Source: a virus | Taxonomy: Duplodnaviria > Caudoviricetes | Virus record (IMG/VR): IMGVR_UViG_3300044991_002130 | Location: 1-64,000 of that record | Strand: one strand, 5' to 3' | Length of the DNA: 64,000 nt | In this document: piece after piece, positions 17,977 through 36,506 of the stretch | Layout of the letters: each line of letters opens with the position of its first letter | How positions within the stretch are numbered: position 1 is the first letter of the stretch | The notes under the pieces: model-generated | Seen by the model: only the letters and a program-made list of their open reading frames with translations | Told to the model about the DNA's origin: nothing | Databases searched by the model: none | Position numbers and translations under genes: made by a program

Positions 17977-18005
17977 TTGACAATTCATTTTTTTCCATAC
18001 ATAGT
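17977..18005 (+). promoter_or_regulatory. sigma70-type promoter of the RNA-island leader
   Basis: TTGACA-N17-CATAGT; similar promoters recur in the window. Confidence 0.6.
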
Positions 18006-18038
18006 TCTATTTATTAAATAACAGTAATAACAAATTCA

Positions 18039-18170
18039 ATGAGACATTATTCAATCAAATCGCAATCCGTGACCTCCAAGTGGAGTGTGCGCTTTAATGC
18101 GACACAACCTACACTCGGAGCCAATGAAGGCGACTTGTTGGGTGGTCCGGTTGAGGAAAAGATTTTCTAA
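18039..18170 (+). CDS. putative 43-aa attenuator leader peptide
   Basis: MRHYSIKSQSVTSKWSVRFNATQPTLGANEGDLLGGPVEEKIF, between promoter and terminator; below the ORF-track cutoff. Confidence 0.55.
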   Translation: MRHYSIKSQSVTSKWSVRFNATQPTLGANEGDLLGGPVEEKIF

Positions 18171-18196
18171 ATAAAAATCAAATCCAAAACCTCCGG

Positions 18197-18227
18197 AACC
18201 ACCCTCTAAAAAAGAAGGTGGTTTTTT
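18197..18227 (+). terminator. intrinsic terminator / attenuator hairpin
   Basis: AACCACCcTCT-aaaaa-AGAaGGTGGTT plus T-run; 5' arm is also complementary to 18140-18150. Confidence 0.7.
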
Positions 18228-18690
18228 AATTTTAGGGAAAGTAAGTAAGAAAAAGTTTGACAGAAGATAAAAAAGAGTCAAGGTGACAGAAGATAAGAAA
18301 AAGAAAGGGTAGCGAAAGAGAAAGTTAAAAAAAGTTCGAAAAGATAGTTGACAGCGAAAGATAAAAGAGTAAGATGGTCAGCGTTGTAGTAGCAAAGGCG
18401 AAACAACAAAAAGTTTTTTCACAGTACAATTTTGACAGGTAAAAGCGCACCTAGAAAGCGTGCTAAAATAGCCACCGGCCCATTTAGGGACCGTTTTGTG
18501 GGAATCAATATCAATAAGTTCAGGTAGGGTTGAGGTTAGAGTGAGTAACTTTATTGTGAGGCCGAAGTATAAGTTATTTTTAATAAAGTTGGAGAGATCA
18601 ACAATAAGATACGCAAGTAGCGTATTGAGTTGGCCTCTCCTAACAATTTCAAGTCGTTCTACTGACCGACTCTAAATAAATCAGTTATAT

Positions 18691-18769
18691 GGAAGTCAAG
18701 CTATTCGGGACGGGCACCTCCCTCTTAAGGAGAACATTCGTGTGGGTTCAACTCCCACGGCTTCCACCA
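18691..18769 (+). tRNA. tRNA-Lys(CTT)
   Basis: cloverleaf, loop ctCTTaa, 3' CCA. Confidence 0.8.
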
Positions 18770-18830
18770 TTTTTTCAAAATAATTGATGTTATGTGAGTA
18801 TATATTATATTTATTTTTACACATCAAATT

Positions 18831-19163
18831 ATGAACGACCATAAAGATTTACTTGGAGAATTTCTGTCCGGTGGATGGATTGTAGCAATAATCGGAGCAG
18901 CGGGTATGATAGCAAGATTGCTGACCGACGATGTAAAGATTACACTGATGCAACAAGTTAAAAGAATACTTGCCGCATCAATATGTTCTGTCATTACATG
19001 GTTTTTATTAGAAAATGTAGATTTAAGTAGTCTGACTAAAGCCGTAACATACGGAGTAGTTGGAGTAATCAGTCCAGAAATTTTAGAAGGTTTGTCGAAG
19101 TTGGGAAAGAGTTTTGCAAAAAATCCTTTCAAATTCTTCAGGCGGACAAAAAAGATTGAGTAA
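18831..19163 (+). CDS. small multi-pass membrane protein (holin-like)
   Basis: three hydrophobic segments and a basic C-terminus. Confidence 0.55.
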   Translation: MNDHKDLLGEFLSGGWIVAIIGAAGMIARLLTDDVKITLMQQVKRILAASICSVITWFLLENVDLSSLTKAVTYGVVGVISPEILEGLSKLGKSFAKNPFKFFRRTKKIE

Positions 19164-19167
19164 TAGT

Positions 19168-19244
19168 GCGGGGTTGATGTTTAACGGTTAGCATACGAGT
19201 TTTCCAAACTTGATGTGGGGGTTCGAATCCCCCACCCCGCTCCA
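19168..19244 (+). tRNA. tRNA-Gly(TCC)
   Basis: cloverleaf, ttTCCaa, CCA. Confidence 0.9.
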
Positions 19245-19321
19245 ATTTGTACTAGGTTTGGTGTTCCAACCATTCCGAAGATATATAGCAAACACTAAAT
19301 ACGCAGTACAGCAAATTTTTT

Positions 19322-19407
19322 GGCTTATTATACCGCTAAGGACGCGGTTCGCACTGTAAATGCGAAGCCCTCGGGCTGGGTTGGTTCGATACCGACATAA
19401 GCCACCA
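19322..19407 (+). tRNA. tRNA-Tyr(GTA)
   Basis: ctGTAaa, long variable arm, CCA. Confidence 0.88.
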
Positions 19408-19414
19408 TTTTTAT

Positions 19415-19490
19415 CCGCTTATAGCTCAATTGGCAGAGCACGCTCTTTATAGGGGCATGGTTGTGGGTTCAACTCCTACTGGGCGGACCA
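19415..19490 (+). tRNA. tRNA-Ile(TAT)
   Basis: cloverleaf, ttTATag, CCA. Confidence 0.8.
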
Positions 19491-19501
19491 ATTTATAATA
19501 C

Positions 19502-19589
19502 GGAAAGTTGGCAGAGTGGTCTAATGCAGGACTTTGCTAAAGTCCCGATCCGAAAGGGTCCATAGGTTCGAATCCTATATTTTCCGCCA
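19502..19589 (+). tRNA. tRNA-Ser(GCT)
   Basis: ttGCTaa, long variable arm, G73, CCA. Confidence 0.92.
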
Positions 19590-19660
19590 AATTTAGATTC
19601 TTGCAAGACGGTGTTCCTTTGAATTGCAATTCAATCGAAGTGACCGCAGCTGAAGTCAGT

Positions 19661-19728
19661 GGTGAATGATATAATGGCATTATTTCTCCCATAAAGGAGA
19701 ATATCTGGGTTCGACTCCCAGTTTACCG
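19661..19728 (+). ncRNA. tRNA-like element with irregular anticodon loop, no CCA
   Basis: GGTGAAT/GTTTACC acceptor, CTGGG-ttcgact-CCCAG T arm, loop cataaa. Confidence 0.5.
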
Positions 19729-19755
19729 AAAAGCTGACATGAGGCAAAACTTTAC

Positions 19756-19830
19756 GCCGAATAAACATAAATGGTAATGTGCTAGTCTTGTAAACTAGAT
19801 AAGCGGGTTCGATTCCCGCATTTGGCTCCA
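19756..19830 (+). tRNA. tRNA-Thr(TGT)
   Basis: ctTGTaa, CCA. Confidence 0.88.
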
Positions 19831-19915
19831 ATTTGTAGGTCGCAATATTCTGAATTATAATTCAGCGAAGATATTCCAATTATTGCGTTAGTGGAATTCG
19901 CCTATAACAATTTAT

Positions 19916-19991
19916 GCCGTGTGACATAGCTGGTTGTGATGACTCCTCTGCAAAAGGATGGAGATTGGTTCGATTCCAATACGCGGCTCCA
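19916..19991 (+). tRNA. tRNA-Cys(GCA)
   Basis: ctGCAaa, U73, CCA. Confidence 0.8.
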
Positions 19992-19999
19992 ATTTATAT

Positions 20000-20073
20000 G
20001 CGGGATTAGTTTAGTGGTAGAATGTGACATTGCCAATGTCGATACGGGAGTTCGATTCTCCCATCCCGCACCA
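20000..20073 (+). tRNA. tRNA-Gly(GCC)
   Basis: ttGCCaa, CCA. Confidence 0.9.
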
Positions 20074-20210
20074 CTTTGACAGGATGGAATGGGCGTCGTA
20101 TAGTTGGTAAATCAACTTGCAGTCCAACGTGAACCAACCCAGCAGCAACGAAGCGTGAGAAAAGTTGAGTTCTCATGTGAAGCTAGTAGAAGTTCTGTCA
20201 ATAATTTTAT

Positions 20211-20288
20211 GGCCATGTGACGTAACTGGATAAACGTGTTAGTTTTAGAAACTAAATTCTGTGGGTTCGAGTCCCACCTTGGCTACCA
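20211..20288 (+). tRNA. tRNA-Leu(TAG), short variable arm
   Basis: ttTAGaa, CCA. Confidence 0.8.
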
Positions 20289-20504
20289 TTTTAGGTCGAA
20301 ACAATGAGTTGCATAAATTCAATGAAACGGTTGGTTAATAACCAACAGCCACTTTTCTTGGCGCGACTTTTAATTTTGATAGTGTATGTGTTTTCGTCTC
20401 TAAAATCTTACGGCACATGGAAGACGTGTAACGGGTTCAAAGTCCGACCACTTTGCATTGAGCAGAGTGAGTAAGCCAACCATATACATTATCAAAAAAT
20501 TTAT

Positions 20505-20580
20505 GGGAGTTTGGTGAAGGCGGTCCTCACGTCGCACTGAAGATGCGAAGAAGTTGGTTCAATTCCAACAGCTCCCACCA
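20505..20580 (+). tRNA. tRNA-Phe(GAA)
   Basis: ctGAAga, CCA. Confidence 0.88.
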
Positions 20581-20586
20581 TTTTAT

Positions 20587-20660
20587 TGAGATATGTTGTA
20601 GTGGTAGCAACGGAGTCTTTGAAACTCTTAGTCTTGGTTCGATTCCAAGTATCTCAGCCA
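20587..20660 (+). tRNA. tRNA-Gln(TTG), copy 1
   Basis: ctTTGaa, U1-A72, CCA. Confidence 0.9.
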
Positions 20661-20809
20661 GTTTGAGAAACCTATACCAATAGGTGTATAAGCCGAACGG
20701 CCCGAGAGGGATGGACGTGAGCTATAGCATGGATGTGTAATCGAAAGAGTATCCACCAAGACTTGTTCTTGGCGCAAAAATCCATTGTGACAACACCTCA
20801 AACATTTAT

Positions 20810-20885
20810 CGGAGTGTGGTGACAAAGGTTGTCGATTCGTTTTGGAAACGAAATTATGCAGGTTCGAGTCCTGTCACTCCGACCA
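20810..20885 (+). tRNA. tRNA-Pro(TGG)
   Basis: ttTGGaa, C1-G72, A73, CCA. Confidence 0.85.
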
Positions 20886-20892
20886 CTTTTAT

Positions 20893-20966
20893 TGAGATAT
20901 GTTGTAGTGGTAGCAACGGAGTCTTTGAAACTCTTAGTCTTGGTTCGATTCCAAGTATCTCAGCCA
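20893..20966 (+). tRNA. tRNA-Gln(TTG), copy 2
   Basis: identical to 20587-20660. Confidence 0.9.
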
Positions 20967-20973
20967 TTTTTAT

Positions 20974-21048
20974 TGCGATATAGTGTTAAGGTAGCACAGC
21001 CCGACTGTTAATCGGGAAGTGATGGTTCAAGTCCATCTTTCGCAGCCA
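20974..21048 (+). tRNA. tRNA-Asn(GTT)
   Basis: ctGTTaa, G73, CCA. Confidence 0.88.
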
Positions 21049-21213
21049 TTTTATTATACAACAACTGCGGAGATAGTAATTCCAAAAAAGTTGTTACTGT
21101 ATGAGTAGAAGATATCGTGAATTAATTACTATGTCACGTGAAGCGAAAAATATAGGATAATATAAAGGTGAAGCCTCATCTTGAATGGGTTAAATTCCCA
21201 AAGGCATTTTTAT

Positions 21214-21291
21214 TCTCATCGGGCTGGCATGGTGTTAAGCACGTGACTGTTAATCACGATAAGCGTGGATCGTTACCACGGGTGGGAGCCA
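21214..21291 (+). tRNA. tRNA-Asn(GTT), divergent T loop
   Basis: ctGTTaa, CCA. Confidence 0.8.
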
Positions 21292-21425
21292 ATTTAATGT
21301 AGCTGAGAACGGATGCAAGCGGTATACCGAAACGCCGAAAGGTTGACCTTGGAAACAAGCGGTATGTGTCGATACAAAAGTATCATAACAGAGTGGAACT
21401 CACACTCTCATTAAAAATTTTATAT

Positions 21426-21504
21426 GGAACTAAAGCCACAGTGGACGGGCAGCGGTCTTTTAAACCGTTAATTCGTGTGGGTTCAACTCCCACTGGTTCC
21501 ACCA
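21426..21504 (+). tRNA. tRNA-Lys(TTT)
   Basis: ctTTTaa, CCA; body similar to 18691. Confidence 0.85.
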
Positions 21505-21564
21505 TTTTGTTAGCTTTTTTGTACATATGAGTTATATTTATAGAAATACCACCATTATTTACAT

Positions 21565-21990
21565 ATGAAAAAAAGCGAACTTAAAGATATTATAGCCGAA
21601 TGCGTTACCGAAGTCATTCAAGAACAAGGTTTACCAGAAGGTTGGGGACAAGACATGTTGAAAGGTTTGAAGAAGACCTTCACGGGCGATGGTCCAGACA
21701 GTGGAGCAGCACATTATGATAGAAATGCAAAAATGCACAATAAACGCGTGGATTACAGTAAAGCATCTATCGGAGATAAGTCTAAGATGCGGGCCGGAGC
21801 AAGAAAAACGGTAGAGGCTTCGAAACAAGAATTTGAAACTAAGTTAAAAGAAATGCTGCGCAGTGCATTCGTAGAAGCCGAATCAGTCGGAATGAAGCGC
21901 GAAGACGTAACAAAAGCATTTCGTTCCGCAATCACGAGTATTTTTAACAAATATAAAAGACTCGAAGAGATAGCAGAAGAACAACAATAA
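21565..21990 (+). CDS. hypothetical protein with MKKSELK..I.E N-terminus (putative internal virion protein)
   Basis: shared N-terminal motif; TATTTAT upstream. Confidence 0.7.
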   Translation: MKKSELKDIIAECVTEVIQEQGLPEGWGQDMLKGLKKTFTGDGPDSGAAHYDRNAKMHNKRVDYSKASIGDKSKMRAGARKTVEASKQEFETKLKEMLRSAFVEAESVGMKREDVTKAFRSAITSIFNKYKRLEEIAEEQQ

Positions 21991-22142
21991 TTTTTAGGTG
22001 ATGTGTGAGGTTTCACTGACTCACACTTAGTCGAGAAGCTCGATAACCTTTTGGGTGTGAGGGGCGACTATCGTGTCGCCGACATCTTTGGTCCCCACCA
22101 ATTTGTCGCAATGGGGCAATACCTCACACATATAATTTATAT

Positions 22143-22225
22143 AGCAGAGACAAGCCAAGGGACGCTGAGTGCGCTCATAACGCATCCGAAAGGTATGATG
22201 GATTCGATTTCCATCTCTGCTACCA
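22143..22225 (+). tRNA. tRNA-Met/Ile2(CAT)
   Basis: ctCATaa, extra CC-GAAA-GG arm, CCA. Confidence 0.75.
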
Positions 22226-22314
22226 ATTTCGTATTCGTGTTTCGGACCAAAAGAATATAGAGTGACATACGACTCTTTCAATTGGAAAAATCAGAGCACC
22301 CAATTTATTTTTAT

Positions 22315-22390
22315 CAGTGTGTGGTGCAAGAGGTTGGCGATTCCGCTTGGAACGGAAATTATGTAGGTTCGAGTCCTATCACACTGACCA
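22315..22390 (+). tRNA. tRNA-Pro(TGG)
   Basis: ctTGGaa, CCA. Confidence 0.82.
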
Positions 22391-22455
22391 ATTTTTAACA
22401 TACACAGTAGTCCTCTTGATTTATATCAATGTCAATAATGGCTGTGTGAAACTTT

Positions 22456-22532
22456 GGAGTGGGAGCTTATGAAGCACAAGCAATAGATTGTCAATCTATA
22501 GAAAGTCGGTGCAAATCCGATGCACTCCGCCA
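22456..22532 (+). tRNA. tRNA-Asp(GTC), divergent
   Basis: ttGTCaa, G73, CCA. Confidence 0.78.
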
Positions 22533-22659
22533 ATTTTACGATTTGAATATGGACGCATATTCATTCGTCGCGTCTGATTCAAGGTGACTGGCAGTCCTTG
22601 TGGCTGGGTTCTAGACTAAGTTGTTTCGACTACAACGGCGCGACATATTTAAATTTTAT

Positions 22660-22735
22660 GGTGTTATAGTGTAAAGGTCGCACTGGCTGATTGTCAATCA
22701 GCAAGACGGGGTTCGAGTTCCCCGTAACACCGCCA
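22660..22735 (+). tRNA. tRNA-Asp(GTC)
   Basis: ttGTCaa, G73, CCA. Confidence 0.88.
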
Positions 22736-22776
22736 CTTTGAGTCGCAATATGGAAACATATATGCCGATTTTATAT

Positions 22777-22852
22777 GCGCACGTCGTCCAACTGGATAGG
22801 ACATCAGATTACGAATCTGAGAATTAGGGTTCGAATCCCTACGAGCGCACCA
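22777..22852 (+). tRNA. tRNA-Arg(ACG)
   Basis: ttACGaa, CCA. Confidence 0.9.
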
Positions 22853-22858
22853 TTTTAT

Positions 22859-22935
22859 GGAGACGCTGGCAAAGTAGAGCCGACCTCGCTTCGAACGAGT
22901 TATAACTATAGGTTAGAGTCCTATCGCCTCCACCA
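22859..22935 (+). tRNA. tRNA-Arg(TCG)
   Basis: ctTCGaa, CCA. Confidence 0.75.
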
Positions 22936-23606
22936 ATTTTTGAGCGGCAGCGTGGAAGGACATACAGCCTTGAGAAGTTCTATTACGCACAGTATAGTGT
23001 ACATAAAGCTGTGCCTCTGAAACGAAGCGATGACTACCTAATAGATCGGGTCAGATTCAATGTCATCAATAGGTATCAATTCCTATCCGACTCAAATTAA
23101 TTTTGAATAGCAGCTCGGAGTGTAGAAAAGTTTTTCCCTTTTCGGTACGAGCATGGGGTTAAACCATCAGCGGAAAAATAAGCAACGAAAAGCCTCTAAG
23201 TTCATAACAATATGTTAAATGGGAAAATAATAACATGTTGGAATTTATGCGCAAACAGGAAACTCGCTATAGTGTAGATATATAAAGCAAAACTACATCT
23301 ATTCAAAAATTTTTGGATATGTTGCGGAACGTCTAGACAATTAACGCAAAGCTAGTCAAAGAGAATTAACATTCTTGATTGTAAGTTCAAATCTTACCTA
23401 TCCAAATTTTTTAATTTACAGAGAGTTAAGGGTACAGCCATTGGAATATCGCAGTGGGTTCATGTAGCGTAATAAGCACTCTTGACCAAACACTTTCTAA
23501 TATTTGGACAGAAGTCTAGTTGTTTGTAAAACAGGAGTCGGTGTAATCATATTGATGTTTTTCAACAGGCAACCGTGCGCGGAATAATCGGGTGCTGTTC
23601 ATTTTT

Positions 23607-23682
23607 GGCCCTATAGAATAATGGTTGAGTTCGCCTGCCTTTCAAGCAGGAGAGCCGGGATCGTGACCCGGTGGGGCTACCA
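23607..23682 (+). tRNA. tRNA-Glu(TTC)
   Basis: ctTTCaa, CCA. Confidence 0.87.
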
Positions 23683-23815
23683 ATTTGTCATCATTGAGGG
23701 CAGAAATATGAAATAGCAGTGGTGTAATGGTAGCACAGGGACAGCAAATCTTGCGATATGGTTCGATTCCATGCAGTGAAAAATAAGTCTGAGCGACCTG
23801 AAATGACAAAAATTT

Positions 23816-24083
23816 TTGTTGAGGAGGTTGGTCTAGAGGCAGCAATCCTATAATGAGTAGAGTCCGTACTCCAAGCTAGTAAAAGTGCAGCGATGAATTC
23901 TCGAATTCTGCATTTCCCATTACCAACTATAATGGTTCGCGTGGAGGCAATTCAGACGCGAACCGATAAGAACTACGGAATTGACCTTAGCTCGGTGCCG
24001 AAAATGTAAGCGCAAATATAGTTGTTATATATTTGGCCGCGAAACGGTGTTAGCTCTTTTGGCGTAATAGCACACTCTTCAAA
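23816..24083 (+). ncRNA. ncRNA containing a 23S rRNA H43-H44 (L11-binding) mimic with a ~200-nt insert
   Basis: AGGAGGTTGGTCTAGAGGCAGCAATCCTATAATGAGT ... GCGTAATAGCACACT, closed by GAG/CTC and TTG/CAA pairs. Confidence 0.75.
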
Positions 24084-24094
24084 AATATTTAAAT

Positions 24095-24173
24095 GGCGAT
24101 ATCGTCTATGTTTGGAAAGGACAGGATATTCTCAATATTCAAAGGTCGGTTCGACTCCCGACTATCGCCACCA
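24095..24173 (+). tRNA. tRNA-Glu(CTC)
   Basis: ttCTCaa, CCA. Confidence 0.85.
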
Positions 24174-24175
24174 TT

Positions 24176-25534
24176 TTATGTTTTCCATTTACGAATTAAG
24201 TTTTTCAACTTGATTCTGTGCTCGCGGATTTTTTGCTTACTGCGCAATCTGATATAATTAGCAACTTCCTCCGCGCCACCAAAAGTTAACATTTCAACTA
24301 TATCGTTAATATCTTTTGGAATAAATTTTTCTTGGGTCTGTGGGTCGGCGAACATGTATGTTTGATTTGAAGAATTTCGATATGCTTGATATTTTTTCAT
24401 CGCATTCCCTAACACACTTTCTAGATTGAAATCGGATAATCTCACCAAGTTTTCGTAACTAGAATCGTCCAATACACCGCGAACAATATTTGACATTGGT
24501 TTGCCGTAAGTTTTAATATTCACAACGTGTGTTATAGCGTTGGTGATTTGGTCGAGATAATCTCCGTCGTAACTTTTCAAGAACTTGGTCAAATCTTTAG
24601 AGAGGAATACACCATTGTCTCTTCCATGATGAAAGATGCACCACCACGCTAAGTTTTTTCCCAGCGCATCGTAATCTTCGGTTCCTAGATATTCTTCTAG
24701 GTCGTCCTCTATACGACCGTCGTCTAGGATGTTATAATGTTCTGCTATTAGCGTAGACAGTTTAGGAACAAACTCGTCGCCATGATCTTTTACCCACTCT
24801 TCGTTTTTCTTTTCTTCCACTTCTTGCTGTCTGTCTGAAATATTGCTTTCATCGTCATCAAGGTATTCCGTTAATTTTTCCATTGCTTCTTCCGGCAATA
24901 TTTCTGATAAATATTCCCCCGGTCTAGACATGGTATGGTCCTGAGAATTATACAATGTCCAATCACGACTGTTCGCCCCGGACGGAGAGAGCAACGCCAA
25001 TCGAGCCATTGGTTTTTCAGATTCTCGGTCATGTATAAGAATTACGGTGTTTTCAGAGTAGTAATCCTGCCAATAATCTTCGCTGCTTGAAATACACCAG
25101 TTGGTTTTTCCGGCTGCAAAATTTCCAACTGCATCTTGTGAGCGCGGACCGACAATTAAAAATCTGTCATCTTCGTAAATCAGTTCGGTGTCTGCGGCTA
25201 ATTTTTCTCTGTTGCTAAGTTTCTTCGCGGCTTCGTCGGTGGCTCGGACAAACTCTTCATAAGTTTTGTACTTGTTGATGTCAATGCTTGATAGCTTGTT
25301 GAAGTGCACCTTAATTCTCTGTAACAAATCATTAGCGAACACTTTGTTTTCAATTTTGTCGGATACGGTGACGATCTTTCCAAGCCAGTCGAGATACTTC
25401 TTGTTGGCGGTAAAGTCGCCATCTATAAGTAAGTTCTGCATCCATAATGGGAGGTTTACGTATTTCTCTTGAAAGTCAGAAACTCGACTTTCCAGCAATA
25501 AATATGGCAATAAAGATGATAATTTGATGTGCAT
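24176..25534 (-). CDS. hypothetical protein (putative virion protein)
   Basis: 452 aa; IKLSSLL..LLE start, TNWCIS motif; TATTTAT upstream. Confidence 0.75.
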   Translation of the reverse strand: MHIKLSSLLPYLLLESRVSDFQEKYVNLPLWMQNLLIDGDFTANKKYLDWLGKIVTVSDKIENKVFANDLLQRIKVHFNKLSSIDINKYKTYEEFVRATDEAAKKLSNREKLAADTELIYEDDRFLIVGPRSQDAVGNFAAGKTNWCISSSEDYWQDYYSENTVILIHDRESEKPMARLALLSPSGANSRDWTLYNSQDHTMSRPGEYLSEILPEEAMEKLTEYLDDDESNISDRQQEVEEKKNEEWVKDHGDEFVPKLSTLIAEHYNILDDGRIEDDLEEYLGTEDYDALGKNLAWWCIFHHGRDNGVFLSKDLTKFLKSYDGDYLDQITNAITHVVNIKTYGKPMSNIVRGVLDDSSYENLVRLSDFNLESVLGNAMKKYQAYRNSSNQTYMFADPQTQEKFIPKDINDIVEMLTFGGAEEVANYIRLRSKQKIREHRIKLKNLIRKWKT

Positions 25535-25598
25535 TAGTAATTATAAATATAATGCAGTGATTATAATAAACGATTTTACAGAATTTGATTTATAATAT

Positions 25599-25673
25599 GG
25601 TGTGGTAGAACAATGGTAGTTCAACGTCTTGATAAGGCGAAGGTTGTGGGTTCGACTCCCACCCGCACCACCA
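25599..25673 (+). tRNA. tRNA-Ile(GAT)
   Basis: ttGATaa, CCA. Confidence 0.9.
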
Positions 25674-25677
25674 ATTT

Positions 25678-25752
25678 GAAGAAGTAGCTCAGAGAAAGAG
25701 CGCCGGTGTTTCAACGTCTGTGAGGTCGGTGGTTCAAGTCCACCCTTCTTCG
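25678..25752 (+). ncRNA. tRNA-like gene with malformed anticodon arm
   Basis: GAAGAAG/CTTCTTC acceptor, normal D and T arms, ambiguous tttcaa loop, no CCA. Confidence 0.55.
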
Positions 25753-25761
25753 ATATTTTAT

Positions 25762-25838
25762 GGGGTCGCATGTACTAAGGATAGCGACGGATACTTGCAA
25801 TATCTGTGATGTGAGTTCGATTCTCACCGATTCCACCA
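25762..25838 (+). tRNA. tRNA-Ala(TGC)
   Basis: ctTGCaa, G3:U70, CCA. Confidence 0.82.
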
Positions 25839-25840
25839 AT

Positions 25841-27403
25841 TTAACTTGGATCATATCCAAACTCATGAAGACTATCGCCTGTAGTAAATAAATGCATAGC
25901 CGAAACAGTCTTTGTTAAGATTTTATAATCTCCCATAAGAGTATTTCTGCCGTGACTAATAGCGTATCTTTTATTTATTGTCACCCAATCACCGGGATTG
26001 ATTTTTAAACCTTTCAATTTCTTCGATTTGAGCGCGTCCATCTCAGCAAACAATTTTTCAAGCAAAGCGTCTTTGTTATATTTTAACTCGGGATATAAAT
26101 CGGAATATTTACTGCCTACTGGTAAAAATCCAAATTTCATGATGTACCCGGCAACGGTTGATATATCTTTAATTTTATTATCCGTGTCTTTGTTTAAGTT
26201 TGGTACTGCCCTGTATATTCTAACTTGCTTGTTGGGGTTTCCTCTTGCACTTTGTATTATAGATACGGTCTCAGCATCACTGTATTCAGTTGATCGATCC
26301 CCATAATATTGTTCGGCCTTCGATGAATAAACATCGTCTGGATAAATTTTTGTTAAATCGTGCAATGGTGCTCCGCCATCTTTATCTGGCGCACGGTGTT
26401 GACCTTTATAATCTTCTTGTTCAGACAATTTTAATTGGTCACGCTGGTCGTTTGATATAGCGTTTTTACTTTTTAGTTTATCAAAGAACAACTTCACTCT
26501 TGGGTCGGATGATAATAAACTATCGGATGCTGCCTCTTCCATCCAGTGTTCTAATAAAGTTGTCAAATCCTCGCGGTTGACGGCGTTGTTAATCAAAATA
26601 TTTTTGTCTTTTATATCACCCTTAAATCTCATTGGAACATTTGATCCCACTTTTTTATATCCAATTTTTTCTAATTGATTGGATATTTTTTCCGGAACTG
26701 CAAAAATAGCCGGTGTGGATGAGTGTAGCAAATCCAATAGCATATCTATACCAGTTTTACCAGTCTCGGGTGCAAAATGCGAAACGGCAAATGTATCACC
26801 GATGAATTGACCAACGAGATAATCTTTGGAGTTATATGGATTATAAATAGTCCCATGTCCGCTTTGTAAATGTGAAATTAAATCGGTAGGATTTATACCT
26901 GCACGAACCGCGTATTTTTCGTAGTTATCTTGAATAGTATGTGCTTCTTCTTCACCTGTAACATCTCTAAAATTTGAAGATAGCCGAGTATCGGATTGCG
27001 GCAACTTAGTTACTGTATATGCCTCAGATACCTTACTTGTATTTATTTTTTCCGATTTTATTATTTTTATTTGCCGTGGAGAAAATACAAAACAGTCAAA
27101 TTGACCATCAGCGTCTTTGAGGATTACTCCATCAAATCCATTACCTTTAATCTGACCAAGACCAAGCTTGTCGTATTCATCCCACCCAGCAGGATTATTA
27201 ATGGTGACTTCGGCAGTAATTAGGTAACCTTTACCTTGTGCACCCGCTTCGTTTGACAATATTTTGTTTTTATCAGACGTAAACCATATAATACCTTGAG
27301 TAGTTTTTTTCAAGTCAAACTTTTTAAATTTTGAACCTGTTCCATGATACACAGTCAATGGTTTCGACTGAATCTCGTTAAGTAAATCTTTTAATTTAAT
27401 CAT
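25841..27403 (-). CDS. multidomain protein with ADP-ribosyltransferase-like (ART-PolyVal-like) domains
   Basis: MIKLKDLLNE; VYHGT..F..F..GIIWFT..GFDGVI; C-terminal IYRAVP..INPGDWVT..YA..HG. Confidence 0.6.
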   Translation of the reverse strand: MIKLKDLLNEIQSKPLTVYHGTGSKFKKFDLKKTTQGIIWFTSDKNKILSNEAGAQGKGYLITAEVTINNPAGWDEYDKLGLGQIKGNGFDGVILKDADGQFDCFVFSPRQIKIIKSEKINTSKVSEAYTVTKLPQSDTRLSSNFRDVTGEEEAHTIQDNYEKYAVRAGINPTDLISHLQSGHGTIYNPYNSKDYLVGQFIGDTFAVSHFAPETGKTGIDMLLDLLHSSTPAIFAVPEKISNQLEKIGYKKVGSNVPMRFKGDIKDKNILINNAVNREDLTTLLEHWMEEAASDSLLSSDPRVKLFFDKLKSKNAISNDQRDQLKLSEQEDYKGQHRAPDKDGGAPLHDLTKIYPDDVYSSKAEQYYGDRSTEYSDAETVSIIQSARGNPNKQVRIYRAVPNLNKDTDNKIKDISTVAGYIMKFGFLPVGSKYSDLYPELKYNKDALLEKLFAEMDALKSKKLKGLKINPGDWVTINKRYAISHGRNTLMGDYKILTKTVSAMHLFTTGDSLHEFGYDPS

Positions 27404-27409
27404 GATATA

Positions 27410-27955
27410 TTATTCTTCGTAAGTTATATCAAATTGTCGATTTTGGTCCACTACTTCATCGAGCTTGCCGGACAGTGTTGGTTGGAGACTTGCTGATAAT
27501 TTCTTTTTTAGGCCATCTTTTAAAGCTAACAGATGTTTGCAAAGTCCCGGACGATTTTCCGGATTTAACATATCTGCTGGCATTCCATTAGATTTATTCA
27601 AACTATTGAATCCTAATGGACTTGCTCCTTTTTTATTGTTAGCGTATGCCCAACGAAATTTATAATCTGGACATCCACAATCAACTTCGCACATGAGTCT
27701 ATCTGGGCGAGTAACTTCTTTAGATTTTGGAAATGTAATTCTACCTTTCCAAGATTTACCCGTGGTGTTATTATCTGGCGCACTTCTAAAAGAGAAATTC
27801 CAGTATCTTTCATCTCTGTTAGACAGAACGGGCAATGTTTGTACTTTCATATTCTTCGCTCGGTTCTTTCTGGACGGCGTGGACGAATTGAATAATTGGT
27901 AAAAACTCATTCTCTCGGTCAATAGGCTGCGAGCAAGGTTTGCTAGTGAAATCAT
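27410..27955 (-). CDS. SWIM-type Zn-finger-like protein
   Basis: CxCPDY ... LCKHL. Confidence 0.65.
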   Translation of the reverse strand: MISLANLARSLLTERMSFYQLFNSSTPSRKNRAKNMKVQTLPVLSNRDERYWNFSFRSAPDNNTTGKSWKGRITFPKSKEVTRPDRLMCEVDCGCPDYKFRWAYANNKKGASPLGFNSLNKSNGMPADMLNPENRPGLCKHLLALKDGLKKKLSASLQPTLSGKLDEVVDQNRQFDITYEE

Positions 27956-27997
27956 ATGTATAAATATAGGTTAGATGTTATAAAATGTAAAGATAAC

Positions 27998-28073
27998 GGG
28001 GAAATAGCTCAATTGGTAGAGCACCGCATTTGCAATGCGAAGGTTGTGGGTTCGAGCCCCATTTTCTCCACCA
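27998..28073 (+). tRNA. tRNA-Ala(TGC)
   Basis: ttTGCaa, G3:U70, CCA. Confidence 0.93.
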
Positions 28074-28101
28074 TTTATAGTAAACAGTATGCGTGCTTAT
28101 T

Positions 28102-28419
28102 ATGCAAAACATATACTATAATCCAAAAGAATGCGGTTTAGAAATTGTCGATGTACTTGACGACCCTCAAGACTACGCGTTTAATACTCTATTGATAGTT
28201 CGGGCGACCGACACCAATCGAGTGTATTACGCAGCAAGTGCGGGGTGTTCTTGTCCCGTCCCGTTCGAAGAATATCATTATGCTTCGGCTGATGATAACG
28301 ATTTGAACGAGGTGACATATGAGACGTTAGACAGCTTCATTAATGTAGTGAATAATTTTCCTGTTTCCATTGATGAAAGAAAAGATGCTATCCGCAAGGT
28401 TGAAGCACTATTAAAGTAA
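28102..28419 (+). CDS. hypothetical protein
   Basis: GCSCPVPFE motif. Confidence 0.65.
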   Translation: MQNIYYNPKECGLEIVDVLDDPQDYAFNTLLIVRATDTNRVYYAASAGCSCPVPFEEYHYASADDNDLNEVTYETLDSFINVVNNFPVSIDERKDAIRKVEALLK

Positions 28420-28450
28420 ACATCGGAGTCGAGGGAGAAATCCCTTTTTT

Positions 28451-28526
28451 GGTCTTATAGCTCAATCGGTAGAGCAGGAAGCTTTTAACTTCTTGGTTCG
28501 GGGTTCGAGTCCCCGTGGGACCACCA
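28451..28526 (+). tRNA. tRNA-Lys(TTT)
   Basis: ctTTTaa, CCA. Confidence 0.93.
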
Positions 28527-28578
28527 TTTACATTAAATATAATAAGTAAATTTAAAATTGAAGTATATATTTATATTT

Positions 28579-29040
28579 ATGAAAAAATCCGAATTAAAAT
28601 CTTTGATAAAAGAAGTAATACAAGAAATCGAGCTTAACCCTGAATATAGTGTGAATTCAGACGAACAGGTAAGAATTGCAATAAGACGCAGTTATAAACC
28701 CTTCCCAAAAGCGAAATTTTCCTCCCCCAACGAGGAATTATTTCAAAAATATCTTCGAGCCGCACAAGCTTGGGCTGCTCAAAATTTAGCGGATTCGAAA
28801 AACGGTGCATTGTTATCAAAGCAAGGAAAATTACACACGAGAATAAGACCAGACGCTAAAGATAGTGACCTAGTTTTACGGTTTGACGACGGATATGAAA
28901 ATTTTGATGAGTTTCTATTAGACTACGACCAAAAACAAATAAGTCAGCATGAATATATATGGATTTCGCCGCGACATATTGCAAAATACGTAATGGGAGA
29001 AGTGGCGGACAGAATCGTAATTCCGGGAGAAACAAAATAA
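28579..29040 (+). CDS. hypothetical protein with MKKSELKSLIKEVIQE N-terminus
   Basis: shared N-terminal motif; TATTTAT upstream. Confidence 0.7.
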   Translation: MKKSELKSLIKEVIQEIELNPEYSVNSDEQVRIAIRRSYKPFPKAKFSSPNEELFQKYLRAAQAWAAQNLADSKNGALLSKQGKLHTRIRPDAKDSDLVLRFDDGYENFDEFLLDYDQKQISQHEYIWISPRHIAKYVMGEVADRIVIPGETK

Positions 29041-29051
29041 TAAAATTTTAT

Positions 29052-29127
29052 GCTGGGGTAGCATAGTGGCTAATGCAGCGCGTTTACATCGCGCCTATCG
29101 GGGGTTCGAGTCCCTTCTCCAGTACCA
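29052..29127 (+). tRNA. tRNA-Val(TAC)
   Basis: ttTACat, CCA. Confidence 0.9.
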
Positions 29128-29264
29128 ATTTCAATATAAAAAACCAGTATAGCCCAAAGATAATTCAGCGGTCTGGGGTGATGCATCACTTGTCTGTTTG
29201 GGATATTGAAACTAATTTAATGTGATGAGCCCTAGTTTTTGTATTTGGTATATATTTATATTAC

Positions 29265-29654
29265 ATGATAAAATTGAAAGACTTGATCGGAACACCGTTT
29301 GCAGTGTTTGTTTTAGCCAAAGCAAATGGTGGATATGCTGCTACAACTCGTGCAGCTGATCGCAATGAGCAAGGAAGAATTGGATTGCCCGGTGGAAAAG
29401 TTGATATTGGCGAATCGCCAGTTGAAGCAGTAACAAGAGAAGCTAAAGAAGAAGGATGGGAAGTAAAAGTAACAAACACAACACCCATACACACACAATT
29501 GGTTGATGGAAAACTTGTGCATTGGTATGCTGGAGAATCTGCCATAAAATTGAATAATTTCAAAGAAAAGGGAAGAATAACTCCCATAGTTGCAACTCGT
29601 GAACAGATTTTATCTTCTGGTTATGGAAATGAAAATCTGTACAATCATATATAA
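29265..29654 (+). CDS. NUDIX hydrolase
   Basis: Nudix box GGKVDIGESPVEAVTREAKEEG; MIKLKDL N-terminus. Confidence 0.88.
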   Translation: MIKLKDLIGTPFAVFVLAKANGGYAATTRAADRNEQGRIGLPGGKVDIGESPVEAVTREAKEEGWEVKVTNTTPIHTQLVDGKLVHWYAGESAIKLNNFKEKGRITPIVATREQILSSGYGNENLYNHI

Positions 29655-30098
29655 TTTAGCAGTTACGACGTTCTGAAACAAACGATCCAGCCTACTGTTC
29701 CGCTGTAACCCGAGCAGTTGCATTTTTGGTAAACGTGAAAAGAAATAGTAAAGAATAGAACACGAGTCATCGTACTTGTGTCACACTAGGCTATCCATCT
29801 AGCTCCTTAATAGGAATAAATTTACAACCATCTTCTTTCAGTATAACAAGTGCTCAAAACTTGTTCGTTCATATGTTTTCGTAAAAGCATATCAACAGAA
29901 GCAGTGGATTGGTTCAATCGTTAGTTCTTTTGCGTAAAAAGACAATATTTGTCACTCAATGCCTCTTAACAATGCACAATTTTAAGTGAGTTTTACGGCA
30001 GTTACAGGGGTAGCCCCTTGGGTGGGAGGCGCACACCAAATCACGCCTATTCTATTTTTATTGACATTGCATGATATTTATGTAGTGTTATAGTTTAT

Positions 30099-30174
30099 CG
30101 GAGTGTAGCGTAACTTGGTAGCGCACTCGCTTTGGGAGCGAGCGGTCCGGGTTCAAATCCCGGCACTCCGACCA
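30099..30174 (+). tRNA. tRNA-Pro(TGG)
   Basis: ttTGGga, CCA. Confidence 0.93.
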
Positions 30175-30180
30175 TTTTAT

Positions 30181-30256
30181 GGCGTTTATAGTGTAGTGGT
30201 TCGCACGGAAGTTTGTGAAACTTTCAGGACGATTTCGAATATCGTTAGACGCCCCA
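30181..30256 (+). tRNA. tRNA-His(GTG)
   Basis: ttGTGaa, G-1:C73, CCA. Confidence 0.88.
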
Positions 30257-30384
30257 ATTTGTAAGTTTTATAAGATGTAGCCAATGCTTCCAAGCGAGGA
30301 TCATGTGCTGTAAGTTCTTACCTGTCGCAATGGTGCAAAATAGAAACATCGAGCATTAGAGTTGGTAGCTTACAAAAATTTTAT

Positions 30385-30470
30385 AGAGTGGTCGCATAAT
30401 GGTATTGCAGAAGTCTCCAAAACTTCCGTTTTAAAAAACATTGTCGGTTCGAGTCCGACCCACTCTGCCA
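30385..30470 (+). tRNA. tRNA-Trp(CCA) with long variable arm
   Basis: ctCCAaa, G73, CCA. Confidence 0.85.
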
Positions 30471-30478
30471 ATTTTTAC

Positions 30479-30554
30479 GCCAATGTAGTCTAAAGAATAG
30501 GCACCAGTTTCCTAAACTGTTTATATGTAGGTTTGAGTCCTATCATTGGCACCA
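30479..30554 (+). tRNA. tRNA-Arg(CCT)
   Basis: ttCCTaa, CCA. Confidence 0.8.
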
Positions 30555-30562
30555 ATTTATAT

Positions 30563-30653
30563 AGAAAGGTAGCCAAGTGGTTTACGGCACTACATTGGAA
30601 GTGTAGCGGGTTCTAAACAAGCCCCGCGAGTTCGAATCTCGCCCTTTCTGCCA
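30563..30653 (+). tRNA. tRNA-Ser(GGA)
   Basis: ttGGAag, long variable arm, CCA. Confidence 0.9.
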
Positions 30654-30698
30654 TTTATATGTTGACACAAGACAAAAAATATCCAAGATAGAAACCAC

Positions 30699-31037
30699 AT
30701 GATAAATAAAACCAAAAAATTCGAAATTGAGGGAGTTGATTGGAAAATCCAAGTAGAATTGGACTCATTGGTATACACGGACACGGCAACGAGACTATTT
30801 GTGGCAGGCGCGATGGCGATTGAACATATGAGTACCGGGTCCACAGGATGTAATCTAGGTGCAATCGTTTTGGTGACTGAAAAAGACGGAAAGAATATTA
30901 CGTTCGGAGTGAATTCGTACATTTGCTTAAATCGTGTGGGAGACTATGAGTCTGCAAAAATTTTAAGAAAAAATTACAGGGATATGTCAGGCCAAGATTT
31001 GTCAGAAGATTTAAAAGGATATCACAAATGCAAATAA
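30699..31037 (+). CDS. hypothetical protein
   Basis: 112-aa ORF downstream of a TTGACA promoter. Confidence 0.6.
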   Translation: MINKTKKFEIEGVDWKIQVELDSLVYTDTATRLFVAGAMAIEHMSTGSTGCNLGAIVLVTEKDGKNITFGVNSYICLNRVGDYESAKILRKNYRDMSGQDLSEDLKGYHKCK

Positions 31038-31080
31038 ATTCCGCTATTTTTACTTATTATATATATATTTATAACAATAT

Positions 31081-31965
31081 ATGAGTATATTACAATCTAC
31101 GTTTGATAAGCATAAGAAGTTGATGTTGGAGAGTGTTGTACAAGATAGATTGCGTGATGAGGCGGCGCTTGAACAAAAAAAACAGCAACTGCTTGCGAGT
31201 GGATTAAGAGTCGTTCCAATGCAAGGTGGGGAAGACAAAAAATACTTTGCATATACATCGGGGAGATACATTGTGTTGATTGATATGGGAAATATAAAAC
31301 TTCCATTTTATTGTTCTTCCGGAGAAGGAGGAAAAGCAAATGTTCCTTCTGGAAAATGGTATCCGATTTTTGGAATAAGCAAAGCGGGTTGGCTCAACAA
31401 GGGCACAGAAGAACAAATTAACAATTATTATGGAAGCAGTGCTGCAAAATCTGTGGCCAAGAAGTTAGACGAGGTATTGGGAGATATGCGAGAAATGTTT
31501 TCGATGAAACATTTCGTGGGTGTAGACAAGGTATTGCCTATTATAAATCAAGATTTGAATCCACCCGACCAACGCCCCACCCCAGAAAGATCAAAAGAAT
31601 ATATGGAAATATATAGAGCGAATGTTAGAAACGTTTTGCAGAAAATAGGAGGGAACGCGGGACCAGTTCCAATAAAAAATAAGTTAACATTAACACACAA
31701 CGGTAAAAATGTTGTGGAAGCAAATATTTCAGCAAACATTGGCCGAGCAATCGTCCAAAAACACGGCGACGACGCCAAATATTTTAGTAGTGAACAATTT
31801 CAAATTCAAAAACAAAAAGATGATACGTGGAAATTGATTCATAACAAAGCTGCCACGAATATAACAACCATTGATGGTAAAGAAGTAACCGAGCCAACAA
31901 CACTTGTCAAAGGAATGAAGATTGCGCTAGGAAAAACTGGCAAATTTCCAATGGAAGTTGGCTAA
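31081..31965 (+). CDS. protein with C-terminal FHA-like domain
   Basis: IGR..S..Q..I....W.L.....TN.T.IDG..L..G..I.LG pattern. Confidence 0.65.
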   Translation: MSILQSTFDKHKKLMLESVVQDRLRDEAALEQKKQQLLASGLRVVPMQGGEDKKYFAYTSGRYIVLIDMGNIKLPFYCSSGEGGKANVPSGKWYPIFGISKAGWLNKGTEEQINNYYGSSAAKSVAKKLDEVLGDMREMFSMKHFVGVDKVLPIINQDLNPPDQRPTPERSKEYMEIYRANVRNVLQKIGGNAGPVPIKNKLTLTHNGKNVVEANISANIGRAIVQKHGDDAKYFSSEQFQIQKQKDDTWKLIHNKAATNITTIDGKEVTEPTTLVKGMKIALGKTGKFPMEVG

Positions 31966-32184
31966 TATAATTTTCTATAGTGACAAAAAGGGCGGCAGAC
32001 TCTGAATCTGTTGTTTGAAGCGTTGGGGTTGCTCCCAACTCAGTAAACGGCACTGAGGGTGGTTTAACCTAACCACGAAAGATGCTAAAGTGAGATAGCT
32101 GTGGGACAGCTTGACTATAGAAAAATTTTTGATATAAATAGTAGTGGTTCATCGCTTTTGTCTTGATTCAATATATTTATTGAT

Positions 32185-32943
32185 ATGGAACAAAAAATTT
32201 GTGAACTTGGGTGTGGTAAAATTGCTATTCATCAACTGAAAAGTGGGAAGTGGATTTGTGATACATCCGCAAACAAATGTGAAGTTATGCGAAAGAAAAA
32301 TTCTGACGCTACCCTTGGAATAGAAAAGCCTTGGATGAGAGGAGAAAACCACCCCAGACCGATGTTAGGAAAAAAATCTTGGAACTCAGGATTAACAAAG
32401 GAGACGAGTCCAATAGTTATGGCTCAGTCAAATAAAATGAAGGGGACAGTTTCAAAGTTTGGTGGCCGAGCATCAACCGCCGAAAAAGAAAAATTAAGAA
32501 AAGAGAATATTTCTAAATCTATGAAAGGTGTTGGTGGGGGATTTAGAATGAAAAGTGGTAGAGGTAAAAAAGGTTGGTATAAAGGATATTTTTGTAGTAG
32601 TTCGTGGGAATTGGCGTGGGTCATTTACTCATTAGAGCATGGAGTAAAATTTGAGAGAAACAAAATTGGATTTCCATATGAATTTAATGGAAAACGGAAA
32701 AAATATTATCCCGATTTTATTGTTGATAAAAATTATGTGGAGATAAAGGGATACGATTCTCCACAGTGGGAAGAGAAGAAAAAGCAGTTCAACAATAATT
32801 TGATTGTTCTTGGGAAAAATGAGATAAAACCATACATAGAATACACAGAAACAAAGTATGGAAAAGATTTTGTTAGGTTATATGAAGATGGAAAGGTGGC
32901 AGAGCGGTCTATTGCGGAAATCTTGAAAATTTCTAATCCTTAA
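32185..32943 (+). CDS. putative homing endonuclease (NUMOD3-like plus PD-(D/E)xK)
   Basis: GENHP..GK.SWN.G; SSWE; YYPDF..YVEIKG; 3' end overlaps tRNA-Ser. Confidence 0.8.
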   Translation: MEQKICELGCGKIAIHQLKSGKWICDTSANKCEVMRKKNSDATLGIEKPWMRGENHPRPMLGKKSWNSGLTKETSPIVMAQSNKMKGTVSKFGGRASTAEKEKLRKENISKSMKGVGGGFRMKSGRGKKGWYKGYFCSSSWELAWVIYSLEHGVKFERNKIGFPYEFNGKRKKYYPDFIVDKNYVEIKGYDSPQWEEKKKQFNNNLIVLGKNEIKPYIEYTETKYGKDFVRLYEDGKVAERSIAEILKISNP

Positions 32944-32979
32944 ACGGGTTCGTGGGTTCGATTCCCACCCTTTCCTCCA
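32890..32979 (+). tRNA. tRNA-Ser(TGA)
   Basis: ctTGAaa, long variable arm, CCA. Confidence 0.92.
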
Positions 32980-33045
32980 TTTTATGGCGTCCACTTGAGG
33001 ATGAACCATAGAGTGCGGGTAGATGAATCGCACACGCCAATTTTC

Positions 33046-33121
33046 GCCGCCGAAGTTCATATGGGTGAACGTCTGTTTCGTAAATAGAATGTAGCTGGTT
33101 CGATTCCAGCCGGTGGCTCCA
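33046..33121 (+). tRNA. tRNA-Thr(CGT)
   Basis: ttCGTaa, CCA. Confidence 0.87.
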
Positions 33122-33164
33122 TTTTACATAATATAGTTCATTGTATATTATATTTATTGGTAGT

Positions 33165-34268: not shown

Positions 34269-34292
34269 AGAGTATAATATATATCAATTCGC

Positions 34293-34366
34293 TGGGAAAT
34301 GATGTAGTGGTAGCATATTTGTCTCTGAAACAAATCGCGTTGGTTCGATTCCAACTCTCCCATCCA
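34293..34366 (+). tRNA. tRNA-Gln(CTG)
   Basis: ctCTGaa, CCA. Confidence 0.87.
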
Positions 34367-34482
34367 ATTATTATATCTTATAAAAGCTTATTATAAAAAT
34401 TTTTGTCTTGTAAAAGTCATATATATCTGTTCTAATTGAACATATATCGTCCTTGAAAGAGGATGTAATTTGAAAAATAACT

Positions 34483-36417: not shown

Positions 36418-36440
36418 TAATTAACAAGTTGTAAGACTTC

Positions 36441-36469: not shown

Positions 36470-36506
36470 CATTTATAATTAATTTTGATATATATTTATT
36501 AAACAT

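Follow-up and report, generated by a model that had tools for sequence, protein, structure and literature searches.

The leader-peptide attenuators of amino acid operons are those of the trpL, hisL, pheL, leuL, thrL and ilvL type. They are treated, in the text of these sources available to us, in PMC1183508 and PMC3082878, and beside them stand attenuators with a leader open reading frame (ORF) that respond to stalled ribosomes, sense translation inhibitors and lie upstream of genes for ABC-F or efflux proteins, for example vmlR and msrD (PMC9226507; 10.1101/2021.11.29.470318, in the portions accessible). Big sets of transfer RNA (tRNA) genes occur in large phages, and recent work links them to escape from host defences that destroy tRNAs; in the accessible text, such clusters are presented as a counter to tRNA-targeting defences (PMC10264068; PMC11464382; PMC11555353). 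Neither 'promoter' nor 'transcription' occurs in the available text of PMC10264068, regulated tRNA expression is not found in what is accessible of these phage tRNA papers, and a full-text literature search, supplements excluded, returned no attenuator or leader ORF described ahead of a phage tRNA cluster. Here we describe a candidate for such an arrangement in a stretch of 64,000 nucleotides (nt) from a virus of the Caudoviricetes (IMG/VR record IMGVR_UViG_3300044991_002130, positions 1 to 64,000), which we call the window: a promoter (P1), a short ORF and a predicted intrinsic terminator form a cassette at the 5' edge of an island of non-coding RNA (ncRNA) and tRNA genes, and we lean, with modest confidence, towards reading this cassette as a ribosome-mediated (leader-peptide), translation-coupled transcription attenuator of P1.

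A conserved cassette of promoter, leader and terminator

The cassette can be described by four RNA segments. Segment 1 is the 5' part of the ORF, segment 2 lies close to its end, segment 3 follows behind the stop codon and segment 4 is the 3' arm of the terminator; segment 3 can pair either with segment 2, giving an antiterminator, or with segment 4, giving the terminator (coordinates in Table 1). An earlier note on this DNA, made from the sequence alone, had claimed P1, the ORF, GGGTGGTCCGG within the ORF, CCGGAACCACCC and the terminator, all of which are found exactly where it had put them.

Relatives of the locus were gathered from IMG/VR and from metagenome contigs by way of the upstream RNA ligase, the leader DNA block, the downstream ncRNA and the peptide. 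The cassette counts use the ncRNA as anchor, which is independent of the leader: 70 of its hits had upstream sequence of 430 nt or more (another 6 fell short of this), and they reduce to 31 distinct cassettes. P1, an ORF starting with ATG and the terminator are present together in 31/31 cassettes. The P1-type element, TTGAC-N17-19-[CT]AT[ACT][GT]T, precedes the ORF in every one of them (31/31), with the ATG 15-41 nt after the -10 hexamer (again 31/31). The ORF encodes 37 amino acids (aa) in 21 cassettes, 38 aa in 8, 23 aa in 1 and 43 aa in 1, the last being the window. The predicted terminator consists in 31/31 of a G+C-rich stem of 7-9 base pairs followed by at least 5 U, one stem pair covaries (CG 7 / UA 9) and the U-run ends 56-68 nt past the stop codon. 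In the window, RNAfold gives a 12-pair interrupted hairpin of about -14 kcal/mol, then UUUUUU; it is because of the interruption of the stem that a simple consensus scan does not list this terminator.

The cassette is found in a group of large freshwater phages, and the leader family is known only from uncultured records. Among GenBank phages, the DNA from 17600 to 18700 was unmatched in both near and distant search modes, the ncRNA was unmatched as well, and the family peptide had no tblastn match at E <= 1.

Coding character of the leader

Of the six frames, only that of the leader stays open throughout the 29 distinct cassette sequences; the other five have open runs of 18 to 64 aa. An antisense ORF of 76 aa on the minus strand (18051-18281 in the window) was considered and set aside, as it is not conserved and the longest open run of the -3 frame varies from 19 to 64 aa. 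All three indel events in the anchored cassettes keep the frame (3/3): the 38-aa group and the window each have one of +3 nt, and the L011 lineage has one of -45 nt. Conserved residues show variation that is exclusively synonymous (Asn AAC/AAT, His CAC/CAT, Pro with four codons, Gly GGC/GGT), and Ser3 even switches codon family between TCG and AGC. Pairs with dS > 0.5 have a ratio of non-synonymous to synonymous substitutions (dN/dS) of 0.33-0.9, typically 0.35-0.6. Variable columns amount to 28, 26 and 29 for codon positions 1, 2 and 3, that is, without an excess at the third position, and this even spread implies that the constraint on the peptide is moderate and acts partly at the RNA level. 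The leader has no Shine-Dalgarno sequence, which is no argument against its translation, since other genes of the phage do without one too: a Shine-Dalgarno-like purine tract precedes the ATG in 0/59 long window ORFs inspected, and initiation in the host may be Shine-Dalgarno-independent. From these sequence features we infer that the leader ORF is translated.

The leader peptide has no Pfam match, and AlphaFold2, run on an alignment of 22 sequences, gave no confident fold (predicted local distance difference test, pLDDT, 60.8; predicted template modelling score, pTM, 0.14; no secondary structure). An exhaustive search of 1.84 billion cluster representatives returned 9 proteins at E <= 0.001, 8 of them, 37-43 aa long, belonging to the family; the remaining protein, of 325 aa, aligned over a short stretch only and was set aside. 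Judged from the sequence, the conserved W..CFI.QP..GA.EG could act in the exit tunnel as a nascent-peptide arrest motif.

In the L011 group (8 loci; ~7946-8014 in L011) the in-frame deletion of 45 nt leaves a leader of 23 codons, a natural minimal cassette, in which the altered segment 1 is still able to pair with the altered segment 2.

Alternative pairing and its predicted dependence on the ribosome

The stretch 18010-18235 folds with a z-score of -4.47 against shuffles. The duplex of segments 2 and 3 of the window reaches -23.9 kcal/mol against -12.5 +/- 2.5 kcal/mol for dinucleotide shuffles of the upstream 147 nt, 0/2000 of which match it, and the pairing is possible in all 25 distinct variants of the 3' part. 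Its core pairs are invariant, and at two positions compensatory exchanges are seen among the 25 variants: GC 15 / AU 6 / GU 3 / UA 1 at offset -3, and AU 6 / UA 9 / CG 1 / GC 1 at offset +6. The last Ala codon contributes one of these positions with its third base. The two segment 2 codons GGT GTG show zero synonymous variation in 24/24 aligned ORFs, whereas other Gly and Pro codons vary freely, and the ORF ends in ...GGT GTG GC(A/T) and then the stop, directly after segment 2, in 30/31 cassettes. The window is the exception, having lost that stop, so that its ORF runs 6 codons longer. A small hairpin with a conserved AGG/CCU closure occupies the loop between segments 2 and 3 in the relatives too. 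The earlier note had held that the two structures are mutually exclusive and had named covariation and leader conservation in related phages as checks; the pairing indeed stands out from the shuffles, and the relatives display the whole cassette (31/31), compensatory changes in the antiterminator, and a frame and stop position that are kept.

For modelling, we used the folding state in which segment 3 has emerged and segment 4 is still absent, with the ribosome represented by its footprint, in the 29 distinct cassettes. The probability of the antiterminator is 0.86-0.99 without a ribosome as well as with the ribosomal P site (peptidyl site) at codons 1 to ~29, and it falls to 0 with a ribosome over the last 5-7 codons. 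The predicted energy of the antiterminator is -14.0 to -25.6 kcal/mol, that of the terminator core -10.6 to -15.6 kcal/mol. Ribosome-masked equilibrium folding of the full-length RNA was also tried and then replaced by these folds up to segment 3, as its outcome was mixed among relatives and it does not represent the relevant state.

On this basis the following course of events can be proposed. The transcript from P1, a promoter of early type, would carry the short translated ORF, the last codons of which are segment 2. A ribosome keeping pace with the polymerase, and thus standing on the last codons or on the stop as segments 3 and 4 emerge, would mask segment 2; the terminator would then form and the P1 transcript would end at ~18227. 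A ribosome that lags or is stalled within roughly the first 30 codons, or one that never starts, would leave segment 2 to pair with segment 3, and, the antiterminator being more stable than the terminator, the polymerase would read on into the ncRNA and tRNA genes. Slow decoding would in this way lead to more tRNA, a negative feedback on translation capacity. The logic put forward in the earlier note, namely that efficient translation permits termination and stalling permits read-through, is reproduced by the modelled ribosome positions.

Amino acid and codon diversity

The window leader uses 34 distinct codons and 19 amino acids, Cys being absent; our recount agrees with that of the earlier note. 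Set against windows of 43 codons taken from long ORFs of the same phage, this is rare for codons (at least 34 in 1.2-1.3%) and less so for amino acids (at least 19 in 8%), but it is ordinary in comparison with a random ORF of the same base composition (not significant, P = 0.11-0.13 for codons and 0.12 for amino acids), so the diversity that the note had singled out holds against real genes and not against random ones. For most members of the family codon diversity has P = 0.1-0.6 under random-ORF nulls (L076, L046 and few others 0.001-0.03), and the count of 34 codons mainly reflects that the codon bias of real genes is missing.

The amino acids of the relatives give a somewhat stronger signal. 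Among the 26 distinct peptides, 14 contain all 20 amino acids within 37-38 residues, 11 contain 19, and the 23-aa variant contains 13. Windows of 37 codons from phage genes hold 20 amino acids in 0.08-0.35% and at least 19 in 1.3-3.1% of cases; for random ORFs the two values are 0.35-0.45% and 3.4-4.4%, and the family goes only modestly beyond this null. The 8 family representatives, which are mutually 34-70% identical, have 20 amino acids in 4 cases and 19 in 4. Residues present in low copy shift their position across lineages: Arg occurs at five positions, Ile as well as Tyr at three or four, and Cys, like His, at two; E shifts too. Column permutation reached the observed mean diversity in 1/50000 trials with 8 representatives, 31/20000 with 7 and 138/20000 with 5, a test that ignores shared ancestry; in a conditional re-draw of the changed columns the observed value exceeded the null mean in 14/14 comparisons, with individual P of 0.005-0.73, and of 0.005-0.6 when given per lineage. 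Sampling of almost every amino acid is a real, unusual property of this leader family, but the case for selection keeping it complete is no more than suggestive.

Several findings temper the idea of selection, the spread of P in the conditional re-draw among them. Random ORFs of the same composition reach 20 amino acids in 0.35-0.57% of cases and 19 or more in 3-5%; the part of the ORF predicted to do the sensing holds only 16-19 amino acids, Asp lying outside it in all but 1 of 30 peptides checked; and the L011-type leader with its 23 codons and 13 amino acids belongs to a viable lineage. Nor does the window leader show an enrichment for codons that the tRNAs of the phage can read, 23/43 (53%) being Watson-Crick matched in comparison with 57.8% in phage genes. 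The earlier note had seen in the leader a general sensor of translation; the recurrence of 19-20 amino acids in the 37-38 codons of relatives speaks for it, but the statistics are suggestive and not decisive. A more far-reaching proposal would be that selection keeps the leader as a sampler of nearly all 20 amino acids, with any aminoacyl-tRNA shortage slowing the leading ribosome and causing extra transcription of the island tRNAs, and that the role of the cassette would be that of a pan-tRNA homeostat and of a counter-defence sensor; this we put forward tentatively and regard as doubtful. If it were true, the shortage might arise through starvation, when host anticodon nucleases or other defences deplete tRNAs, or when the phage itself shuts off its host, and such a homeostat would be of a kind not described so far.

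Weighing the explanations

Several observations speak against a leader-peptide attenuator that controls the island. Runs of regulatory codons for one amino acid, by which such attenuators are recognised, are absent from all leaders, most amino acids occurring once. Behind the terminator a second, sigma-70-like promoter (P2; TTGACA, 16-18 nt, then TAGAGT, TAAGAT or CATAGT) is kept in 30/31 cassettes (28 detected by regular expression plus L082 and L051, with CATAGT as -10; L059 is without a -35 element), the window, L040 and L046 each have it in duplicate, and further promoters of its class lie inside the island. Only transcription derived from P1 can therefore be gated, and the island, having promoters of its own, does not depend on read-through; the earlier claim that the element gates the island is too strong in this respect, holding for P1 transcripts only. 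The same note had cautioned that promoter-like sites at ~18267 and ~18348 might bypass the element: the second is P2, with a 10/12 consensus match, whereas the TTGACA of the first actually lies at 18257-18262 and has no acceptable -10. The caveat itself turned out to describe a conserved feature of the family.

The folding results add further points on that side. In some relatives the duplex test is weak, 44/1000 shuffles matching the duplex in L073 and 169/1000 in L011. In RNA reaching up to segment 2, this segment is mostly paired upstream already, commonly with codons 2-6 (in the window with P 0.93, mostly with codons 2-5; RNAalifold likewise finds a CACAC/GUGUG pairing of segments 1 and 2 in relatives), so that the state without translation could go either way. 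In full-length equilibrium folds, terminator and antiterminator are nearly iso-energetic and the winner varies among relatives, so the outcome rests on kinetics. Finally, the moderate conservation of the peptide, with 65% mean column identity, also fits a functional small protein.

This last point leads to the main rival, in which P1, a protein of 37-43 aa and its own terminator make up a complete, autonomous early unit, the island being transcribed from P2; the pairing of segments 2 and 3 would then have a role in stability or translation of the mRNA (messenger RNA), or be a by-product of G-rich coding sequence lying beside a C-rich terminator arm. We consider this explanation rather unlikely. 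It draws support from the completeness of the unit, followed as it is by the conserved P2, from a peptide family with invariant M1, W, F, Q, P and two G, from dN/dS below 1 and from the presence of the family among called proteins (the 8 family clusters in the search described above). What it leaves without a protein need is the covariation with segment 3 of two bases, the third one of the last Ala codon and the one that precedes GGTG, and likewise GGT GTG is free of synonymous variation. Moreover, the L011 lineage has lost a central block of 15 codons, the invariant F, Q and P among them, and has kept the start, segment 2, the position of the stop and the terminator; the positions of the low-copy residues (R, I, Y, C, H) differ from lineage to lineage, and neither a Pfam match nor a confident fold was obtained. 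Improbable, in our judgement, is a structured small non-coding RNA of ~190-200 nt, from P1 to the terminator, with an incidental open frame. The strong fold of the window, conserved internal hairpins and the missing third-position excess would suit it; against it stand the ATG and frame kept in 31/31 cassettes with all indels in frame, the synonymous-only variation at conserved codons including the Ser family switch, the fixed position of the stop relative to segment 2, and the scarce covariation in the body of the ORF (RNAalifold, 3/23 pairs).

A classical attenuator could also be tuned to one or few tRNAs, for example through sensing by the N-terminal Asn, Ser, His and Lys codons over segment 1. 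Codons 2-8 (N, S, x, S, H, K, S) do belong to the best conserved ones and overlap with segment 1, an RNA ligase gene is located a short way upstream, and known anticodon nucleases target tRNA-Lys and Asn/His/Tyr/Asp tRNAs. Tandem codon repeats are absent, however, modelled stalling at any of ~29 codons gives the same outcome, and the leader codons lack the enrichment for those read by phage tRNAs, all of which renders a few-tRNA sensor highly improbable. As to the translation-coupled attenuator of P1, the parts, their conservation, the covariation, the conserved frame and the energetics are shown by computation, and we infer that termination and read-through would alternate and that the output would matter in spite of P2.

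Neighbourhood of the cassette

The viral record to which the window belongs has 74 kb and is estimated to represent ~1/3 of a genome. Its DNA polymerase is T4-like, with a Microcystis phage as best isolate match (41% identity). All tRNA genes of the window lie downstream of the cassette on the same strand and none (0) upstream, and the same holds for every tRNA gene (6 to 29 per locus) in 6/6 relatives scanned; the cassette thus always marks the 5' boundary of the tRNA island, in the window and in these 6/6 relatives. ARAGORN also calls a tRNA with anticodon TCA at 25677-25753 (labelled SeC), a possible reader of UGA, and an odd tRNA with a two-base anticodon at 19660-19729; Rfam finds an extra tRNA at 22456-22529 that is absent from the ARAGORN list. 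The RNA ligase gene beside the island suggests tRNA repair. In some relatives this gene and the cassette are ~5.5 kb apart, with other genes between, and the genes upstream of the cassette vary between lineages.

The conserved ncRNA contains several covarying helices according to RNAalifold, for example CCACCGG-stem-CCGUUUUGUGG and a long 3' hairpin, and it is present in all anchor relatives, in L109 in a divergent form. Between 17900 and 19200, Rfam at E <= 5 gave a single chance-level miRNA (microRNA) match on the minus strand, the ncRNA and a T-box being unmatched; at the gathering threshold it reported tRNAs only. The tRNA cluster of T4 also carries stable RNAs of unknown function.

Promoter-like sequences are enriched in the window. 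The class TTGACA-N16-18-TAnnnT occurs 13 times in the window against 3.0 expected. The box TCTATTTAT directly behind the P1 -10 resembles TATATTTAT, which has 16 sites in the window against 1.85 expected, 11 of them in the tRNA island, mostly 5-20 nt upstream of the ATG of island ORFs (e.g. 28566-28580, 29251-29259, 31064-31072, 38719-38727); TATATTTAT probably represents another promoter class, of middle or late type, the leaders of which would be very short. The P2 region is subject to partial or complete tandem duplication: the window has the repeat GACAGAAGATAA[A/G]AAAAG and a partial repeat of the -35 region at 18257-18300, an arrangement that can be likened to strong stable-RNA promoters. 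Reading P1 and P2 as Bacteroidota-type promoters was considered and dropped because P2 does not fit the consensus of that type.

Table 1. Positions of the cassette, its segments and neighbouring features in the window
Feature	Position	Strand	Description	Support
RNA ligase gene	16571-17617		Pfam RNA_ligase and PHA02142 OB domain; ~400 nt upstream of cassette	
Promoter P1	17977..18005	+	TTGACA 17977-17982, 17-nt spacer, CATAGT 18000-18005; A/T tracts before	10/12 consensus matches
TCTATTTAT box	18006..18014	+	conserved; directly 3' of P1 -10; resembles TATATTTAT	alignments
Leader ORF	18039..18170	+	43 codons (MRHYSIKS...EEKIF); no Shine-Dalgarno sequence	homologous ORFs in 31/31 cassettes
Segment 1	18043..18054	+	5' part of ORF, codons 2-6	pairs with segment 2 without ribosome (minimum free energy fold)
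Segment 2	18140..18150	+	antiterminator 5' arm GGGTGGTCCGG, inside ORF, codons 34-38	
Small hairpin	18155..18185	+	in loop between segments 2 and 3; contains ORF stop 18168-18170	
Segment 3	18193..18204	+	CCGGAACCACCC; common to antiterminator (with segment 2) and terminator (with segment 4)	
Predicted intrinsic terminator	18197..18227	+	interrupted stem AACCACC.UCU / AGA.GGUGGUU, then U-run	
Promoter P2	18348..18375	+	TTGACA, 16-nt spacer, TAAGAT; after terminator	10/12 promoter match
Conserved structured ncRNA	18437..18690	+	~250 nt; between P2 and first tRNA; first product after cassette	alignment and RNAalifold
tRNA island	18691..40407	all +	44 tRNA genes, all 20 amino acids	

Implications and comparison with known systems

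If the cassette works as modelled, the phage would gauge the decoding capacity of the cell with a test ORF and adjust its tRNA output, which would carry leader-peptide attenuation beyond single amino acids to translation in general, and beyond the biosynthetic operons of bacteria to RNA genes of a phage. Being small (~250 nt) and provided with sigma-70-like signals, the element could also be reused as a sensor of translation stress.

Among the structural features by which a leader-peptide attenuator is known, the locus has four: an ORF near the promoter, a predicted terminator, a covarying antiterminator and an ORF end placed so as to allow masking. With attenuators of the trp type it shares the promoter-proximal short ORF, the mutually exclusive pairings 2:3 and 3:4 among segments 1-4, a stop codon placed for the masking of segment 2 and a terminator ~60 nt past that stop. 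It differs in lacking codon runs for a single amino acid, nearly every amino acid appearing about once, in preceding a phage ncRNA and tRNAs instead of biosynthetic enzymes, and in having a second promoter after the terminator. In addition, pairing 2:3 beats 1:2 at equilibrium in the folds up to segment 3, and the state without translation may therefore read through and not super-attenuate. The T-box follows a similar logic, poor charging of tRNA leading to antitermination and more translation machinery, but it binds uncharged tRNA directly and has no ORF, whereas the cassette has an ORF and no T-box match in Rfam at E <= 5.

The large tRNA set of this phage could replace depleted or cleaved host tRNAs, as in the clusters treated in the available text of PMC10264068, and here an RNA ligase gene adjoins the island; relative to these counter-defence systems, as the accessible sources present them, a sensing element before the cluster would be an added layer. 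By analogy the cassette would work most like the stall-responsive attenuators that sense translation inhibitors. In the vmlR/msrD type, as described in the accessible portions of the sources, a stall in the leader ORF likewise switches from terminator to antiterminator and trouble in translation induces the downstream genes, but the stall comes from drug-bound ribosomes, often on specific arrest peptides, and the products are bacterial resistance proteins, whereas the cassette is a phage element before tRNA genes.

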